The notes: a model not told the origin generated them from the letters alone. DNA of 64,000 nt from Candidatus Aminicenantes bacterium (GCA_963796835.1 CAWCND010000022.1:1-64000); one strand, 5' to 3'; shown: positions 4,134-58,486, counted from the first letter of the stretch. A program made the numbers and translations.

Positions 4134-5122
4134 GAGCGGAAACGGCCCGCCGCCTCCTTCTGGCCCTCCTCATCCTGCTTGCCGCAGCCGGCTTTCTCCT
4201 GTCTCTCCTGACCGGTCCCGTCAAGACCTCCGCCGCCGACCTGTGGGACGTCGTCCGGGGCGGGGGGACGGGCATCCAGGCCACGATCTTCATCGACCTC
4301 CGGCTCTCGCGGGCCGTCCTGGCCTTCCTGGTCGGGGCGAGCCTGGCCCTCTCCGGGGCCATCCTCCAGGGATATTTCCAGAACCCCATGGCCGACCCCT
4401 TTGTCGTCGGCGTTTCGTCCGGGGCATCGCTCGGCGCGGTTCTGGCCCTTTCCCTGGGTGTCAGCGTCGCTGTCCCCGGCTTCTCCGGGCAGGGACTGAT
4501 GGCTTTCGTTTCGGGACTGGGGATCGTCTCGTTCGTCTACCTCCTCTCCTTGAGGAAGGGCGGCTTCAAGATCGAGACCCTTCTTCTGACCGGGATCGCG
4601 GCCGGAGCGCTGGCCTCGTCCCTGACCTCGTTCCTTCTTTTTATGCGGTCGGATTCCTTCGATCAGGCCGTTTTCTGGCTCCTCGGCAGCTTCCAGCTCG
4701 CCGATTGGAAGCAGGTCGGGACCGTCGCCCCTTACTTTTTGATCTGCCTGGCCGCTTCTCTCTGGCTAGCCAAGGACATGAACCTCCTGGCCATGGGGGA
4801 TGAGACGGCCAGGGCCCTGGGCTGTCCGGTCCGCCGGGTGAGGAAGGCCTTCCTCGTCCTGTCCTCTCTCCTGGCCGCGATCTCCGTTTCGGTCAGCGGG
4901 ATCATCGGCTTCGTCGGCCTCGTCGTGCCCCATTGGATCAGGCTCCTCATAGGCCCGGACCATCGCCGGCTCTTTCCCTACGCATCCCTGGCCGGAGGGA
5001 CGTTCCTCCTCTACTCGGACCTGATCGCCCGGACCATCCTTCCCTCGGAGCTTCCGATCGGCGTGATCACGGCGGCCGTCGGTGCTCCGTTCTTCCTCTA
5101 TCTCCTCCACCAGAAGCGTTGA
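4130..5122 (+). CDS. FecCD/BtuC-family ABC permease
   Basis: About 330 aa and polytopic. FecCD-like segments (GASLALSGAILQGYFQNPMADPFVVGVSSGASLG). 4-nt overlap with the upstream gene. Confidence 0.8.
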   Translation: MRAETARRLLLALLILLAAAGFLLSLLTGPVKTSAADLWDVVRGGGTGIQATIFIDLRLSRAVLAFLVGASLALSGAILQGYFQNPMADPFVVGVSSGASLGAVLALSLGVSVAVPGFSGQGLMAFVSGLGIVSFVYLLSLRKGGFKIETLLLTGIAAGALASSLTSFLLFMRSDSFDQAVFWLLGSFQLADWKQVGTVAPYFLICLAASLWLAKDMNLLAMGDETARALGCPVRRVRKAFLVLSSLLAAISVSVSGIIGFVGLVVPHWIRLLIGPDHRRLFPYASLAGGTFLLYSDLIARTILPSELPIGVITAAVGAPFFLYLLHQKR

Positions 5123-24597: not shown

Positions 24598-24630
24598 ATA
24601 AAAAAAGGGGGCGGCGTTGCCGCCGCCCCG
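24598..24630 (-). terminator. Rho-independent terminator downstream of the pilin gene
   Basis: Minus-strand GGGGCGGCG-GCAA-CGCCGCCCC stem-loop followed by TTTTTTT. Confidence 0.8.
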
Positions 24631-24659: not shown

Positions 24660-25229
24660 TCAGGTGCCGGCGCCCGTCGCGATGAGGGACGTGCGCGGCC
24701 CGACGATCCAGTTGCCGTTCCAAGCAACCAGGTCGTTGTCAAAGTCGCTCATCTTGCTGACGTTGTAGAACCCGGCTTCAGGAGTGCTCGTGGTATAGTT
24801 GGTAACACTGATAGGGCCAACTATCTTGTCCCTTCCATAGGAAGAAACCACGAAATCGTCCGTCCCGACATCCGTCGTGTCGCTGATGACTCCTGAAACT
24901 GCGGCCTGCCCGGTATACACGTTGTAAGGCGTGTTCCACGGATCATTGATGGGGCAGATCTTCAGGTAGAAGGTCGCCACCGCCGTGGGGAATACATCCG
25001 TGGATCCCGTCAGGGCTCCGTTCTGGAGCACGTTCGTCCAGTCGCCGTGGTCCGTGATGTAGTCGGCCGCGGCCGTGGACATGGACATGATTTCCTTCAT
25101 GCACGATTTCTGCTTCGCCTTCTGGATGGCTTCCAGGGCATTCGGAATGAGCAGAGCGGCCAGGATGCCGATGATCGCGACAACGATCAGCAGCTCGATG
25201 AGGGTGAATCCTCTCATCTTCTTGAGCAT
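24660..25229 (-). CDS. pilA: Type IV pilin / pseudopilin with prepilin N-methylation signal
   Basis: MLKKMRG^FTLIELLIVVAIIGILAALLIP is a class III signal peptide. Follows a sigma-54 promoter and sits next to pilSR. Confidence 0.8.
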   Translation of the reverse strand: MLKKMRGFTLIELLIVVAIIGILAALLIPNALEAIQKAKQKSCMKEIMSMSTAAADYITDHGDWTNVLQNGALTGSTDVFPTAVATFYLKICPINDPWNTPYNVYTGQAAVSGVISDTTDVGTDDFVVSSYGRDKIVGPISVTNYTTSTPEAGFYNVSKMSDFDNDLVAWNGNWIVGPRTSLIATGAGT

Positions 25230-25301
25230 TTTAAAACCTCCTTTTCCTTGCTGTTTTTCTCAGTCAAGGTTTGTTAAGCTCAATTGACGCTCTATAATAG
25301 A

Positions 25302-25316
25302 GCAATATCCGTGCCA
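25302..25316 (-). promoter_or_regulatory. Sigma-54 (RpoN) promoter: TGGCACG-GATA-TTGCT on the minus strand, driving the pilin gene
   Basis: Exact -24 GG / -12 GC consensus with correct spacing, about 73 nt upstream of the pilin ATG. AAAGGAGG RBS in the leader. Adjacent gene encodes a sigma-54 activator. Confidence 0.8.
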
Positions 25317-25373
25317 AGTTGACATGTATTTATAACTTATTGATATATATAAAGATAATATCGATGTGATCTT

Positions 25374-25395
25374 TCTACTTTTGAACAAAAGTAGA
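25374..25395. promoter_or_regulatory. Perfect 9-bp inverted repeat TCTACTTTT-gaac-AAAAGTAGA, ~60-80 bp upstream of the sigma-54 promoter. Candidate enhancer/UAS for PilR.
   Basis: Palindrome in the most AT-rich ~200 bp of the window. Position is appropriate for a bacterial enhancer-binding protein site. Confidence 0.4.
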
Positions 25396-25428
25396 CGATT
25401 ATTGTCTTTATGTGACATTTTTTGCCAT

Positions 25429-26844
25429 TTATCCATCGACCTTTTCCTCAAGAAGCGCCTTTTTGTCATTCTTCCTGACCTTGTTCAGGTTGTACTTCCC
25501 GATCAGGTAACGCATCGTCCTGTAGCTGATGCCGAGAAGCGGTGCGGCCTTCTGGATGCTCCCTGCCGTGGCCATGAGGGCCTGGCCGACGTAGTTCTTG
25601 GCCACGTCGTCGAGGTACCCCGTCAGGTTGAAACCCGGCTCGAAGAAGTAATTCGTATCGGGCTTGCCTTTCTGGGGGGAGACGACCTCCTTGGGCAGGC
25701 AGCCCACTGTCACGGTCTCCCTGTCCTCGATGGCCACGATCCGCTCGATGACGTTCTCGAGCTCGCGGATGTTCCCCGGCCAGGCATAGGCCTCGAGCAG
25801 CCCGATGACCTCGGGGGTGAATCTTTTGGTCTTCTTCCCCAGCCGGTCGCAGTGCTTCTGGAGGAAATGGGTCACGAGAAGGGGGATGTCCTCGGTCCGC
25901 TTCCGGAGGGGCGGCATGTCGAACGAGATGACGTTCAGCCGGTAGAACAGCTCCTCCCGGAACTTCCCCTCCTGGATCCTTTTCTTAAGGTCCTGGTTGG
26001 TGGCGGCGATGATCCGGACGTCGACCGGGATCTCTTCCGTTCCCCCGACCCGTCGGACCTGCCGCTCCTGGATGGCCCGCAGGAGCTTGACCTGGGTCCA
26101 GGGCGACATCTCGCCCACCTCGTCGAGGAAGAGCGTCCCCCGCTGGGCGACCTCGAACATCCCCTTCTTGTCGGCCACCGCCCCGGTAAAGGAGCCCCTG
26201 GTGTGGCCGAAGAGCTCGCTCTCGAGGAGGTTCTCCGGCAGAGCGGCACAGTTGATGGAGACGAACTGATGGTCGTGGCGGCCGCTCTGAAAATGGATGG
26301 CCCGGGCGGCCATCTCCTTGCCCGTCCCGCTCTCCCCCGTGACGAGGACGGTCGAGTCGGTGGAAGCCACTTTCTCGATCAGGATGTAGATCTCCTGCAT
26401 GGACCGGCTCTTGCCGATCATGTTCTCGAAGCTGTAGCGCTCCTTGAGGTCCCGCTTGAGGAGGATATTCTCCTGCCTGAGCCGGCGCTCGGCCAGTCCC
26501 CGGCCGACGATGATCTTCAGCTCCTCGACGTCGAACGGCTTGACGACGTAGTCCAGCGCCCCGGCCTTGAGGGCCTCGACGGCCTGGGCGATGCTTCCGT
26601 AGGCCGTGATCATGACCACCGGGACGTCCGGGTGATTCTCCCGGACGAGCTTGAGGACCTCCATGCCGTCGGTCTCGGGCATCTTGATGTCCGTCACGAC
26701 CAGGTCGATGTCGCCCTTTTCGAGGACATCGAAGCCCGCGGCCGCCGATTGCGCGGCCCTGACCCCGTAGCCTTCTTTCTTGAAAACGACCGAGAGGAGG
26801 TCGAGGAGGCTCTTTTCGTCGTCGATGATCAGGACGTTTTCCAT
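25429..26844 (-). CDS. pilR: Sigma-54-dependent response regulator, NtrC/PilR family (receiver + AAA+ + Fis-type HTH)
   Basis: Receiver domain (IIDDE...D). AAA+ sigma-54 activation domain with GESGTGKE and the GAFTGA-like ESELFGH motif. C-terminal HTH. Start taken at MENVLIIDDE. Confidence 0.85.
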   Translation of the reverse strand: MENVLIIDDEKSLLDLLSVVFKKEGYGVRAAQSAAAGFDVLEKGDIDLVVTDIKMPETDGMEVLKLVRENHPDVPVVMITAYGSIAQAVEALKAGALDYVVKPFDVEELKIIVGRGLAERRLRQENILLKRDLKERYSFENMIGKSRSMQEIYILIEKVASTDSTVLVTGESGTGKEMAARAIHFQSGRHDHQFVSINCAALPENLLESELFGHTRGSFTGAVADKKGMFEVAQRGTLFLDEVGEMSPWTQVKLLRAIQERQVRRVGGTEEIPVDVRIIAATNQDLKKRIQEGKFREELFYRLNVISFDMPPLRKRTEDIPLLVTHFLQKHCDRLGKKTKRFTPEVIGLLEAYAWPGNIRELENVIERIVAIEDRETVTVGCLPKEVVSPQKGKPDTNYFFEPGFNLTGYLDDVAKNYVGQALMATAGSIQKAAPLLGISYRTMRYLIGKYNLNKVRKNDKKALLEEKVDG

Positions 26845-26854
26845 CGTCGTTGCC

Positions 26855-28171
26855 TCAATTCTCAGCAGTTTGGCGGGCCGGGAGCGTGATGACCACCTCG
26901 GTCCCGTGGTCGAGCTCCGACCGGATGTCGATCCGCCCGTCGTAGTCGTCCACGATCCGGCGGACGACGGCCAGCCCCAGTCCGCGGCCACCCTCGAACC
27001 CCGAGTGGAAGGGCTCGAAAAGGTGCTCCTTTTCCTCCGGGGACATGCCCTTGCCCGTGTCGGAGAACCGGAGCTCGATCTCGCTCTTCCGCGGCCCCAG
27101 GAAATCGATGTTCAGGACGCCGCCGCCCGGCATGGCCCGGATCGCGTTCTTGATGATGTTCCAGAAGACCTGCTTGAACTGGCCCGGGCTTCCATAGTAA
27201 TGGAGCCCCGAGGCCAGGAAGTTGCCTTGGACTTGGACGCGGCCGTTGAGCTCGCCTCCGGCCTTGAGGATCTTGAGCGTCTCGTCAAGGAGCTCGGGGA
27301 GGCTGATCACGGAAAAGACCTGCTTGGTCGGCAGGGCGAAATCCAGGAACTGGTCGAGGTTGTGGGAGACCCTCTCGGATTCCTTGAGGACGATCTCCAT
27401 AAGGTCGCGTTGCTCCGGGTTGAGGGCGAGCTCCTTTTTCAGGACCTGGACGGACCCCGAAATGGCGGCCAGGGGATTGCGGATCTCGTGGGCCAAGCTG
27501 GCCGAGACACGCCCGGCCTCGGATAGCCGCTCCCGGACGAGGAGCTCCCGTTGGGCCTCATGGAGGGCCAGCCGCGTCTTCCTGAGCCTCCCGGCCAGGG
27601 AATTCGTCAGGAAGGCGATGAGGAAAAAGGCGCTCCAGGGGACGAAAATCAGATAGAGGACGGAGCCGAGCGTCATCCCGGCCGTCGCGTCGGCGCCCGT
27701 CCGCGGGATGACGCCCAGGTAGATCCCATCCACCAGGCCGCCGAAGAGGATGGCCGCCAGGCTCGCCGTCAGGTAGGAGGCCCGGTTGGAAAGGACGAGC
27801 GCGGCCCCCATGATCGGAAAGACGTAGAGGAAATAGGCTGAACTCGAGATCCCGCCCGTGGCGTAGACGAGGGCGGTGATCAGGACGAGGTCCATGATGA
27901 CCTGGACGTAGGCCTGGACGGCCGGATAGCGTCCCCAGTAATAAAAGAGGACGTAGGCGGCCGACAGGGCGTAGGCCGCAAGAATGATCTCGATGAAGGG
28001 GATGAACGAGAAGCTGAAGGAGGCCGAGTACTCGATGGCGAGGGCGAGAAGGAGAAGGAGGGTCACGATGATCCCCCTGAAGATGATCATCAGGAGGATG
28101 CTTCTGCGGTCGTCCTTGTCCTTCATGACATCGTCCCTAGCCTCGTCTTGATATTCCTCGACTTTTCGCAT
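26855..28171 (-). CDS. pilS: Membrane sensor histidine kinase (PilS-like)
   Basis: Six or so N-terminal TM helices. H-box ASLAHEIRNPLAAI. HATPase motifs (GGGLGLAVVRRIV). Confidence 0.8.
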   Translation of the reverse strand: MRKVEEYQDEARDDVMKDKDDRRSILLMIIFRGIIVTLLLLLALAIEYSASFSFSFIPFIEIILAAYALSAAYVLFYYWGRYPAVQAYVQVIMDLVLITALVYATGGISSSAYFLYVFPIMGAALVLSNRASYLTASLAAILFGGLVDGIYLGVIPRTGADATAGMTLGSVLYLIFVPWSAFFLIAFLTNSLAGRLRKTRLALHEAQRELLVRERLSEAGRVSASLAHEIRNPLAAISGSVQVLKKELALNPEQRDLMEIVLKESERVSHNLDQFLDFALPTKQVFSVISLPELLDETLKILKAGGELNGRVQVQGNFLASGLHYYGSPGQFKQVFWNIIKNAIRAMPGGGVLNIDFLGPRKSEIELRFSDTGKGMSPEEKEHLFEPFHSGFEGGRGLGLAVVRRIVDDYDGRIDIRSELDHGTEVVITLPARQTAEN

Positions 28172-30574: not shown

Positions 30575-32304
30575 TCATTCGTCCCGGACGGTCTCGCGCA
30601 GGACTTCCTCGACCGACGTGATCCCGCCCTTGATCTTGGTCAGCCCGCTCCGCCTCAGGGTCAACATCCCCTTCTCGATGGCCTTCTTTTTGATCTCGCG
30701 GGACTGGGCCCGGGAGAGGATCATCTCCCGGATGTCCTCGTCGATCTTCATGGCCTCGAAGAGGGCCGTCCGGCCCTTGTATCCGGTCTTGTTGCAGGCG
30801 TCGCAGCCTTTCGGCCGCAGGGCGTGCATCGCCCTTGAGCTCGTCTTTCCGGAAGCCCATTTCGAGCAGGGCGCTCTCGGGCAGGCTGTGGGGCTGGGCG
30901 CATTTCTTGCAAAGGCGGCGGATGAGCCGTTGGGCCACGATCGAGGATGACGGAGTCGGCGATCAGGAAGGGCTCGATGTTCATGTTGACCAGACGGGTG
31001 ATGGAGCTCGCGGCATCGTTCGTATGGATGGTGGAGAAGACAAGGTGGCCGGTCAGGGCGGCCTTGATCGCGACGTCCACGGTCTCCTGGTCGCGCATTT
31101 CGCCGACGAGCATGATGTCGGGATCCTGCCGCAGGAAGGTCCGGAGACAGGCGGCGAACGTCAGCCCGATCTCTTCCCGGATCGGCACCTGGTTGATTCC
31201 CTGGATGTTGAACTCGACAGGGTCTTCTGCGGTCATGATGTTCATGTCGAGCGAATTGAGGGTCGAGACGGCGGAGTAGAGGGTGTTCGTCTTGCCGCTT
31301 CCCGTCGGGCCCGAGACAAGGATGATCCCCCAGGGCCGGTGGATGGCTTCCTGGAAGAGCGCCAGGGACTCCTCCTCGAACCCGAGCTGGGTCAGGTCGA
31401 GCTTGAGCATCTCCTTGTCCAGGATCCGGGCGACGACCTTCTCCCCGCACATCGTCGGGATCGACGAGACGCGCATGTCGACTTCCTTCTTCTTGCCGTT
31501 ATCGAGCTTGACCCGCATCTTGATCCGGCCGTCCTGGGGGAGGCGCTTCTCGGCGATGTCCATGGTCGAAAGGATCTTGACCCGGGACACGACCGGGTTC
31601 CTGAACTTGAGCGGCAGGTTCACGATCTCGTAGAGGTCGCCGTCGATCCGGTACCGGACGCGGAAGGTGTTTTCGTAGGGTTCGAAGTGGACGTCGCTCG
31701 CCCCCTGCTTGACGGCGTCGATGAAGGTCTGGTTGACGAGCTTGATGATCGGGGCCTCTTCGGCCTCGGCTTCGAGCTCGTGGAGGTCGGTTTCCTCCGG
31801 CTCCACCTCGACGATATTGATCCGGCCCTCATCGGCGAGCTCGATGTCCTCGACGATCTTCTTGACCCGGATGCTGTCGGTCGAGCCATAGTACTTGTTG
31901 ATGGCGTTCATGACGCCGGACTCGGAGGCGATGACGGGCTGGATGCTGAGGCCCGTCCGGAACCGGATGTCCTCGATGACCTCGAGGTCCGTCGGGTCGA
32001 CCATGGCCAGGGTCAGGAACGTCCGGATCCGGTGGATGGGCATGACCGAGTACTTCTTGGCCACATCGTTGGGGATCAGGTTGATGACCTCGGGATAGAC
32101 CTCGAACTGGTCGAAGTCGATGTAGGGATAGCCGAGCTGGCGGCTCAGGGCCTGGGCGATCTCCTCTTCAGAGATGTAGCCGAGCTGGACGAGAGACGTG
32201 CCGACAGGCAGGCTGTTCTTCTTCTGGAAATCGCTCGCGGCCTTCAGCTGGTCGGCCGTGATGATCTTCTCTCTTAACAGAAGTTCGCCCAGGTTAGATG
32301 CCAT
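30575..32304 (-). CDS. pilB: Type IV pilus assembly ATPase PilB (GspE family). C-terminal third interrupted by two apparent frameshifts (~30945 and ~30835).
   Basis: N-terminal GSPII_E_N domain (MASNLGELLLREKIITADQLKAA...). Walker A GPTGSGKT. The tetracysteine tail ...LAQRLIRRLCKKCAQPHS...CDACNKTGYKGRTALFE... is in two other frames. Confidence 0.8.
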
Positions 32305-32326
32305 TTTTAAATCCCAATCTTACGGG

Positions 32327-32346
32327 TTTTGACAACTCCTGTCAAA
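32327..32346. promoter_or_regulatory. Perfect inverted repeat TTTGACA-actcc-TGTCAAA, 23 bp upstream of the pilB ATG. Possible operator and/or -35 of a pilB promoter (rc gives TTGACA, 17-nt spacer, TAAGAT).
   Basis: Palindromic sequence overlapping a -35-like hexamer on both strands. Confidence 0.3.
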
Positions 32347-32620
32347 CCTTTTAGTCTCCCAATCGGGCCCTTTTTACTAACGTTCGCGGCCCCTTTTTTT
32401 CTCTGTAAGGTCCGATGATTACTGAGGGGCATATCCACGGCTCCGATGAGGCCCAGTTTCTCCGATGAGCCATTTTCCGTCAATCACCGGGGGTGAGCAT
32501 AGGCTGGGTGAAATTTACAAATTTTGTCTCACCCCCCGCGGCGAGATGGGTCCCCTTTTCCGGGGTTAGGGACGGACCGCCAAAGACGGCAGCGGATGGG
32601 ATCTCCTCATGATGGGAAAC

Positions 32621-58259: not shown

Positions 58260-58365
58260 CGCTCTTGATCCTTCAACTCAAATTCTCGTACGTTCCCTGC
58301 GCTGTCACCATGGGAATGTCCTGAGATTCTTTCTTCTACATTCTCTAAAATAAAAAATCATTCTA

Positions 58366-58393
58366 TATATAGTCCTATTTCACGAATTGTCAA
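58366..58393 (-). promoter_or_regulatory. Strong sigma-70-type promoter on the minus strand (TTGACA, 16-nt spacer, TATATA) about 100 nt upstream of the ATP-grasp/GNAT/kamA operon
   Basis: Reverse complement of 58366-58393 reads TTGACAattcgtgaaataggacTATATA. Lies in a 315-bp AT-rich gap. Confidence 0.55.
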
Positions 58394-58486
58394 GTTTTTT
58401 CTCCGGGTGAGCCACCTTTTTTTGTAGAGAAGAAGAAAATCGGCACCATTAGTGGTGTCAGATCCGCGCTTCTGCACGCCTCTCCA

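Follow-up and report, generated by a model that had tools for sequence, protein, structure and literature searches.

A 64-kb stretch of DNA from a Candidatus Aminicenantes bacterium, hereafter referred to as the window, carries six genes on the minus strand in the order pilB-pilT-pilC-pilS-pilR-pilin (32304 down to 24660). The 199-nt spacer between the stop codon of pilR (25429) and the ATG of the prepilin gene (25229) raises the question of how transcription of the pilin gene is switched on, and which element of this spacer is recognized by PilR, the sigma-54 activator encoded next to it. The original prediction for this locus described a perfect -24/-12 RpoN consensus in front of the pilin gene and pointed to a perfect palindrome further upstream as the obvious candidate for the upstream activating sequence of PilR. 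Our comparative analysis makes it reasonably probable that the pilin gene possesses a sigma-54 promoter activated by PilS-PilR via two dyads of the TGACA-N5-TGTCA type and an IHF-like box, and it leaves the palindrome outside this conserved machinery. The elements of the spacer are the following:

25413..25427, minus strand: dyad 1, TGGCAaaaaaTGTCA, the proposed distal PilR site, which starts 2 nt after the pilR stop codon and has one mismatch to TGACA-N5-TGTCA
25393..25407, minus strand: dyad 2, AGACAataatCGTCT, the proposed proximal PilR site, with three mismatches, degenerate in the clade of the window
25374-25395, strandless: perfect palindrome of 10+2+10 nt, TCTACTTTTG aa CAAAAGTAGA, lineage-specific
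25333-25345, minus strand: IHF-like box TATCAATAAGTTA (IHF consensus WATCAANNNNTTR), between the dyads and the promoter, from a consensus match
25316-25301, minus strand: sigma-54 -24/-12 promoter TGGCACGGATATTGCT, from a pattern match and conservation
25230-25290, minus strand: predicted 5' leader of approximately 61 nt, with an inferred start
25246-25269, minus strand: leader hairpin CCTTGaCTG-agaaaaa-CAGcAAGG, directly 5' of the Shine-Dalgarno (SD) sequence, from folding

The sequences used for comparison were taken from the pilR loci of GTDB species genomes (among which L001-L009 are Aminicenantes) and from contigs encoding closer PilR orthologues, and comprised 17 non-redundant pilR-pilin spacers, the window included, with PilR proteins 63-100% identical. 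All figures for invariant columns and pairwise identity given below derive from an alignment of nine sequences (A2). The putative promoter TGGCACGGATATTGCT is the only exact match to TGGCAC-N5-TTGCW in the window when both strands are scanned, and dinucleotide shuffles yielded on average 0.02 such matches, with any match at all in 2/100. Its GG and GC are exactly 10 nt apart on the coding strand upstream of the pilin gene, and its 3' end was measured at 71 nt from the pilin ATG at 25229. The perfect consensus reported earlier is confirmed. Looser matches (≤2 mismatches) showed no enrichment in the window (8 observed, 13.45 expected). An element of the form TGGCAY-N5-YTGCW is located between pilR and the prepilin gene in 17/17 spacers, 44-90 nt before the ATG. 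In the alignment this element reaches a pairwise identity of 0.88 with 10/16 columns invariant, as compared to 0.43-0.55 in the adjacent spacer DNA, and represents the most conserved block of the spacer except for the SD sequence. The spacer had also been described as the most AT-rich stretch of the window, and the interval 25228-25427 is indeed its lowest-GC 200-nt interval, with 30.5% GC versus 63.4% overall and 37% in the next lowest. The -24/-12 element is very probably a genuine sigma-54 promoter of the pilin gene, from which, given the usual spacing to the -12 element, transcription would start near G25290.

Upstream of this promoter, our search revealed at least one TGACA-N5-TGTCA dyad (≤2 mismatches) in 17 of 18 loci and 26 sites in total, compared to 1.0 loci and 1.02 sites in shuffled sequences; the count includes both L095 and L096, two contigs that encode one and the same PilR. 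Measured from the first T of the -24 element, the dyad centres are confined to two narrow ranges, -97 to -105 and -77 to -81, with an intra-dyad spacer that is always N5 and an inter-dyad spacer of 4 to 8 nt. In the window the two centres precede the predicted start by approximately 130 and 110 nt, a separation of 20 nt that puts them on the same face of the helix. Invariant columns amount to 6/15 in dyad 1 and 8/15 in dyad 2, the latter with a pairwise identity of 0.79, versus 0-2 in the flanking spacer DNA. At the position of dyad 2 (-77 to -81) the more distant relatives carry TGACA-N5-TGTYA. When at most one mismatch is allowed, the window contains only dyad 1 and a further dyad in front of pilB, and in the 21-kb loci L097 and L098 such dyads are likewise confined to pilA and pilB. 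The PilR orthologues of these loci share a conserved recognition-helix region, LG[IL][SN]YR[ST][MLI]RYL, which makes a common DNA specificity plausible. An enhancer of the NtrC family is expected to consist of dyad-symmetric sites roughly 80-150 nt upstream of the start that are conserved together with the regulator and keep a fixed distance to the promoter; the two dyads answer to this description and the palindrome does not. From this pattern we infer that the dyads are, with fair probability, the binding sites of PilR.

The IHF-like box, with its centre approximately 48 nt before the predicted start, is the sole exact match to WATCAANNNNTTR in the window (0.25 expected). Matches with at most one mismatch occur at the same offset in 13/17 spacers versus 0.32 in shuffles, and we give even chances to the binding of IHF at the predicted box.

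The dyad recurs at the other end of the gene cluster, where it takes the following form:

32330-32344, strandless: perfect dyad TGACAggagtTGTCA, the proposed second PilR operator, 26 nt upstream of the pilB ATG (32304), from a dyad scan

This dyad overlaps a sigma-70-like promoter, TTGACA (32340-32345)-N17-TAAGAT (32317-32322). A metagenome scan with PilB provided 70 distinct upstream regions of pilB genes (PilB 74-95% identical), and in 64 of them the dyad has been retained, at -30 to -41 relative to the ATG, versus 0.2 in shuffles, with diverged flanks; 9/70 contain two dyads (≤2 mismatches), in several cases as an evident tandem pair. As the right half of the dyad, TGTCN, sits in the spacer between -35 and -10, where it is free of sigma-70 constraint, its conservation points to an operator. 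The recurrence of the dyad on the pilB -35 suggests that PilR probably acts on its own pilBTCSR operon as well. The overlap with the -35 would make this action a repression, a sign that we propose only tentatively.

Other features were observed upstream of pilB. Should TAAGAT be the -10 element, pilB would have a leader of only about 5-9 nt and no visible SD sequence. A second conserved non-coding block is located at ~32461-32535, approximately 160-230 nt upstream of pilB, and reads GAGACAAAATTTGTAAATTTCACCCAG...GGTGATTGACGGAAAATGG; it is recognizable in L098 (81% PilR identity) though the neighbouring DNA has diverged, and it contains a dyad with two mismatches, AGACAaaattTGTAA.

Among the alternatives to this assignment, the one that survives best regards the dyads as true operators of another transcription factor, either of the pilus cluster or global and encoded elsewhere, the PilR site itself being less conspicuous. 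The position of the pilB dyad over a sigma-70-like -35 is typical of ordinary repressors, and the link between PilR and the dyads is drawn from sequence. A sigma-54 promoter, on the other hand, requires an activator bound about 80-150 nt upstream, where the dyads are the only conserved blocks and are locked to the -24 element. PilR provides the sole sigma-54 activator signature that a regex search detected in the 64-kb window, and its gene abuts the dyads. The usual enhancer layout of the NtrC family is, moreover, a pair of dimer-sized dyads spaced by about two helical turns. The published hallmarks of PilR sites in Pseudomonas are NifA-like TGT-N11-ACA/AGA and GTCT elements (PMC6058289, PMC8035640), and the absence of TGT-N11-ACA from 17/17 Aminicenantes spacers in our pattern search speaks for the alternative. 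Against it, the dyad pentamers are of the TGTC/GTCT type and resemble these hallmarks: the region upstream of the window's pilin gene shows such pentamers repeated at helical periodicity, as in Pseudomonas (PMC6058289), with GTCT and AGAC each occurring once in dyad 2. We consider operators of another factor unlikely.

The palindrome at 25374-25395 is perfect, as had been stated, although its layout is not 9+4+9: the arms measure 10 nt and the spacer 2 nt. It is the only perfect 10-arm palindrome of the window, and a palindrome of this kind arose in only 60/20,000 composition-matched shuffles of the 199-nt spacer (p ~0.003). Its symmetry was followed through the homologous columns of the relatives, ordered by PilR identity falling from 100 to 81%, and the number of Watson-Crick pairs was 10 (window), 7 (97% PilR), 7 (95%), 4, 4, 4, 5, 3 and 1, which corresponds to 4/10 at 86-89% and 1-3/10 at 81%. 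No compensatory changes were seen at these columns among the aligned relatives. The right arm has 0/10 invariant columns and a mean pairwise identity of 0.34; the left arm is moderately conserved (0.69) and largely coincides with the right half of dyad 2 and a T-tract, the overlap of the palindrome with dyad 2 amounting to only 3 nt. The exact sequence was found in 0/96 loci searched. Compared by majority rule, the three closest sequences point to a common ancestor with approximately 9/10 pairs, from which the window would have gained one and both sisters lost two. By these measures the palindrome lies outside the conserved machinery and behaves as a young, unconstrained and strain-specific feature.

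A strain-specific functional element of another kind, namely a 3' stem-loop that stabilizes or terminates the pilBTCSR transcript or a new site for a second regulator, is an improbable explanation of the palindrome. As RNA it folds at -9.3 kcal/mol (z -3.4), 34 nt past the pilR stop; the palindrome itself exceeds chance by composition, and L088 forms a different significant hairpin on the same conserved left arm (z -2.6). The A/T-rich stem is, nevertheless, followed by AAGATCAC and by no T-run, and the terminator scan makes no call, so that it was rejected as an intrinsic terminator. It was rejected as well as a conserved RNA hairpin, the homologous segments folding no better than shuffles in 5/6 relatives. 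The palindrome differs from the sisters by point substitutions only, and symmetry between A/T-tracts (TTTTG/CAAAA) comes easily in DNA of 30% GC.

The role originally proposed for TCTACTTTTG-aa-CAAAAGTAGA, that of the PilR upstream activating sequence, appears very improbable, even though the palindrome is statistically unusual in the spacer, is centred at a distance usual for enhancers, approximately 94 nt before the predicted start, and shares with the conserved DNA its left arm and the short overlap with dyad 2. The symmetry is gone at once in relatives, with 7/10 pairs already at 97% PilR identity, and the palindrome is unlike the element that recurs at pilB. The helix-turn-helix of PilR is conserved in the very relatives in which the palindrome is not, and a site of PilR would be expected to be conserved together with it. 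Conservation upstream of the pilin genes of relatives, the lack of which had been named beforehand as refuting this role, was looked for, and what proved conserved were the two dyads and not the palindrome.

That the -24/-12 element is not functional, and that pilin transcripts arise instead by read-through out of pilR or at a sigma-70 promoter within the spacer, is scarcely credible: a terminator scan of the spacer found none between pilR and the pilin gene and AT-rich DNA often holds sigma-70-like hexamers, but a sigma-70 scan gave no candidate on the pilin strand and the -24/-12 element is retained in every spacer with an identity far above its surroundings.

With the sigma-54 promoter and the dyads as PilR sites, the circuit may be envisaged as follows. 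Sigma-54 RNA polymerase would bind TGGCAC-N5-TTGCT (25316-25301) as a closed complex, and the membrane kinase PilS would control the phosphorylation of PilR. Phosphorylated PilR would occupy the two TGACA-N5-TGTCA-type dyads (25427-25413 and 25407-25393) just past its own stop codon, and the AT-rich stretch separating them from the promoter would be bent at its IHF-like box (25345-25333). The AAA+ ring of PilR would then contact and remodel the sigma-54 holoenzyme and open the promoter near G25290. The resulting pilin mRNA, of ~0.69 kb, would be monocistronic; it would begin with a 61-nt leader, carry a strong SD sequence and stop at a terminator at 24629-24598. At pilB, PilR on the dyad over the sigma-70-like -35 would most simply act as a repressor of pilBTCSR.

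This last step leads to a broader proposal, which we likewise put forward with some reserve: across the Aminicenantes one PilR box may serve two opposite uses, as a tandem distal enhancer that activates the sigma-54 pilin promoter and as a single operator on the pilB -35 that throttles pilBTCSR. If true, such a two-way box would constitute a built-in feedback that keeps the supply of pilin in balance with the assembly machinery and with the level of the regulator, and it would be the first cis-regulatory code defined for the uncultured Aminicenantes. The pilA dyads and the pilB site together offer a candidate PilR box for regulon prediction in hundreds of metagenome-assembled genomes.

Several observations weigh against the main interpretation, that of PilR acting through the dyads on a sigma-54 promoter. 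The window's dyads are imperfect, the right half of dyad 2 reading yGkCT versus TGTCA, and the pairing of half-sites is ambiguous, as there are four pentamers at a period of ~10 bp. A TGT-N9/10-ACA pattern runs across the junction of dyad 1 and dyad 2 in 15/17 loci; this is explained by its spanning two dyads, and unlike in Pseudomonas the unit in Aminicenantes is TGACA-N5-TGTCA, the TGT-N9/10-ACA form arising only across the two-unit junction. At pilB the left half of the dyad is the -35 hexamer itself, and the promoter explains part of the conservation. Against NCBIfam, PilR gave only matches below the cut-off (AtoC, NtrC and similar), and no PilR equivalog is listed. Regex searches, which covered the 64-kb window only, found neither an RpoN-box signature nor ihf/hup. 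Finally, pilB of the window carries two uncompensated +1 insertions, an A at 30941 and a C at 30831, that divide it among three reading frames. They were called against the intact 575-aa PilB of L097, a relative with 96% DNA identity. Neither insertion sits within a long homopolymer, and the other gaps of the 21-kb alignment either occur as compensated pairs or fall outside genes. The frameshifts reflect either a pseudogene or an assembly error, and because of them this strain may lack a fully working pilus system.

The arrangement has close counterparts among characterized systems. In Geobacter sulfurreducens pilR is located directly upstream of the RpoN-dependent pilA, whose -24/-12 promoter is activated by PilR (PMC2725144). 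Similarly, pilR of Aminicenantes adjoins a pilin gene with a -24/-12 promoter. We take the Geobacter cluster to follow the order pilB-pilT-pilC-pilS-pilR-pilA, the same as in the window. The two differ in lineage (Aminicenantes/Acidobacteriota versus Desulfobacterota) and in the pilin, which has 189 aa in the window as opposed to the short Geobacter type. With Pseudomonas aeruginosa the window shares a PilS sensor with six transmembrane segments (6-TM), an NtrC-family PilR and a pilin with E5 and P22; Pseudomonas pilA and pilSR are not known to be arranged head-to-tail as in the window. In principle the locus matches the arrangement of Pseudomonas, Myxococcus and Xanthomonas as well.

A further parallel is provided by NtrC at glnA, which activates glnAp2 from an enhancer and represses the sigma-70 promoter glnAp1, and by the IHF-assisted looping known at nifH or Pu. 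The window's dyads are likewise about two helical turns apart and ~100-130 nt upstream of the -24/-12 element, with an IHF-consensus box between enhancer and promoter, and the same operator lies over a sigma-70-type promoter of the regulator's own operon at pilB. The differences from NtrC/glnA are that the recognition sequence and the physiological signal are not the same, that 7 kb separate the enhancer from the site over the promoter, the two lying at opposite ends of the cluster, and that repression at pilB is deduced from position.

The PilS-PilR, sigma-54 and pilA circuit that had been proposed for this locus thus agrees with the gene row, the kinase and activator domains and the -24/-12 element found in all 17 spacers, and it is extended to the uncultured Aminicenantes (Acidobacteriota) on comparative evidence that goes beyond a single motif match. 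Our literature search found no paper on pilus regulation in Aminicenantes. The architecture is a known textbook circuit with a lineage-specific definition of the sites and holds no mechanistic surprise, and therefore its value lies in annotation and method: a visually striking but unconserved palindrome is replaced by a specific, testable pair of sites, and perfect symmetry in a single genome counts as weak evidence for an operator.

The genes and the terminator of the cluster to which these conclusions refer are as follows:

32304 down to 30575, minus strand: pilB, split by frameshifts
26855..28171, minus strand: pilS, membrane histidine kinase with a PilS-type 6-TM sensor domain, from Pfam
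25429..26844, minus strand: pilR, NtrC-family sigma-54 activator (REC, AAA+, HTH_8) of 471 aa with its ATG at 26844, from Pfam
24660-25229, minus strand: prepilin gene of 189 aa, with the leader MLKKMRG followed by FTLIELL, with E5 and P22, and its ATG at 25229, from Pfam N_methyl
24598-24629, minus strand: intrinsic terminator 3' of the pilin gene, GGGGCGGCGGCAACGCCGCCCC then CTTTTTTTAT, from a terminator scan

The domain content of the two regulatory proteins bears out the earlier description of an NtrC-type sigma-54 activator followed by a membrane histidine kinase. PilR contains Response_reg, Sigma54_activat (241 bits), AAA_lid_14 and HTH_8 (Pfam), with the sigma-54 contact loop GSFTGA and an intact Walker A motif, GESGTGKE. 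Its closest relatives are encoded by metagenome-assembled genomes of Candidatus Aminicenantes/Aminicenantales, several of them named PilR by JGI. The pilS product matches PF25323 6TM_PilS (65.6 bits, cut-off 27) in addition to HisKA and HATPase_c (Pfam), and its orthologues are annotated with a later start and a product of 423-427 aa. Among the assembly proteins, PilT passes NCBIfam TIGR01420 (452 versus a cut-off of 319) and pilC corresponds to T2SSF. As the window's own pilB is frameshifted, PilB was scored on the intact copy of the close relative L097, which passes NCBIfam TIGR02538 (736 versus a cut-off of 676).

The prepilin lies above the cut-off of NCBIfam TIGR02532 and below those of the GspG and PilA_Myxo equivalogs, and an exact-sequence look-up of the window's pilin gave no match on record. 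An orthologous prepilin gene comes after pilR in all Aminicenantes loci, and synteny is conserved. Downstream of it, the terminator combines nine G-C pairs with a T-run (-22.8 kcal/mol) 30 nt past the pilin stop, and from its position the pilin mRNA is probably monocistronic, with a length of ~0.69 kb.

The neighbourhood of the pilin gene varies among relatives. In the more distant Aminicenantes L002 (6240) and L003 (6187) a second prepilin gene directly follows the first, unlike in the window and its close relatives, where a single pilin gene is followed by an unannotated gene of 287-306 aa and a DUF362 gene. In L082 a run of N at ~4420-4530 falls within the variable C-terminal part of the pilin gene, and the missing pilin gene call in this locus results from the assembly gap and not from a biological difference. 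The N-run is consistent with strain-level variation of the pilin that breaks the assembly.

The ribosome-binding site previously noted in the pilin leader was recovered as AAAGGAGG at 25244-25237, 7 nt before the ATG, with the SD sequence AAGGAGG at 25237-25243, which is invariant in 7/7 columns. The leader folds at -14.4 kcal/mol (z -2.6), and the segment of its hairpin has an identity of 0.81. At the same position, relatives at 81% PilR identity have CCCGGCTGA-ggaga-TCAGCCaGGG, with an invariant inner CTG/CAG stem and an outer stem in another register. RNAalifold on nine leaders yielded a weak consensus of 5 pairs with zero compensatory pairs. At a permissive threshold, Rfam assigned the spacer and the leader to no known RNA family and gave only sub-threshold chance matches (suhB 20 bits, GcvB 19 bits).

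Outside the Aminicenantes, a scan of L010-L080 covered 66 distant PilR-like loci of other phyla with <50% identity. Only 13 of them had a pilin within 900 nt, and among these 13 a -24/-12 match was present in 5 and dyad-like sites in 2; this set is uninformative, and the distant loci probably represent mostly paralogous NtrC-family regulators. Elsewhere in the window, the second lowest-GC stretch (37%), at 58330-58400 between two minus-strand genes, carries a sigma-70-like TTGACA-N16-TATATA on the minus strand beside a plus-strand hairpin with a T-run, and it looks like an ordinary promoter/terminator spacer.

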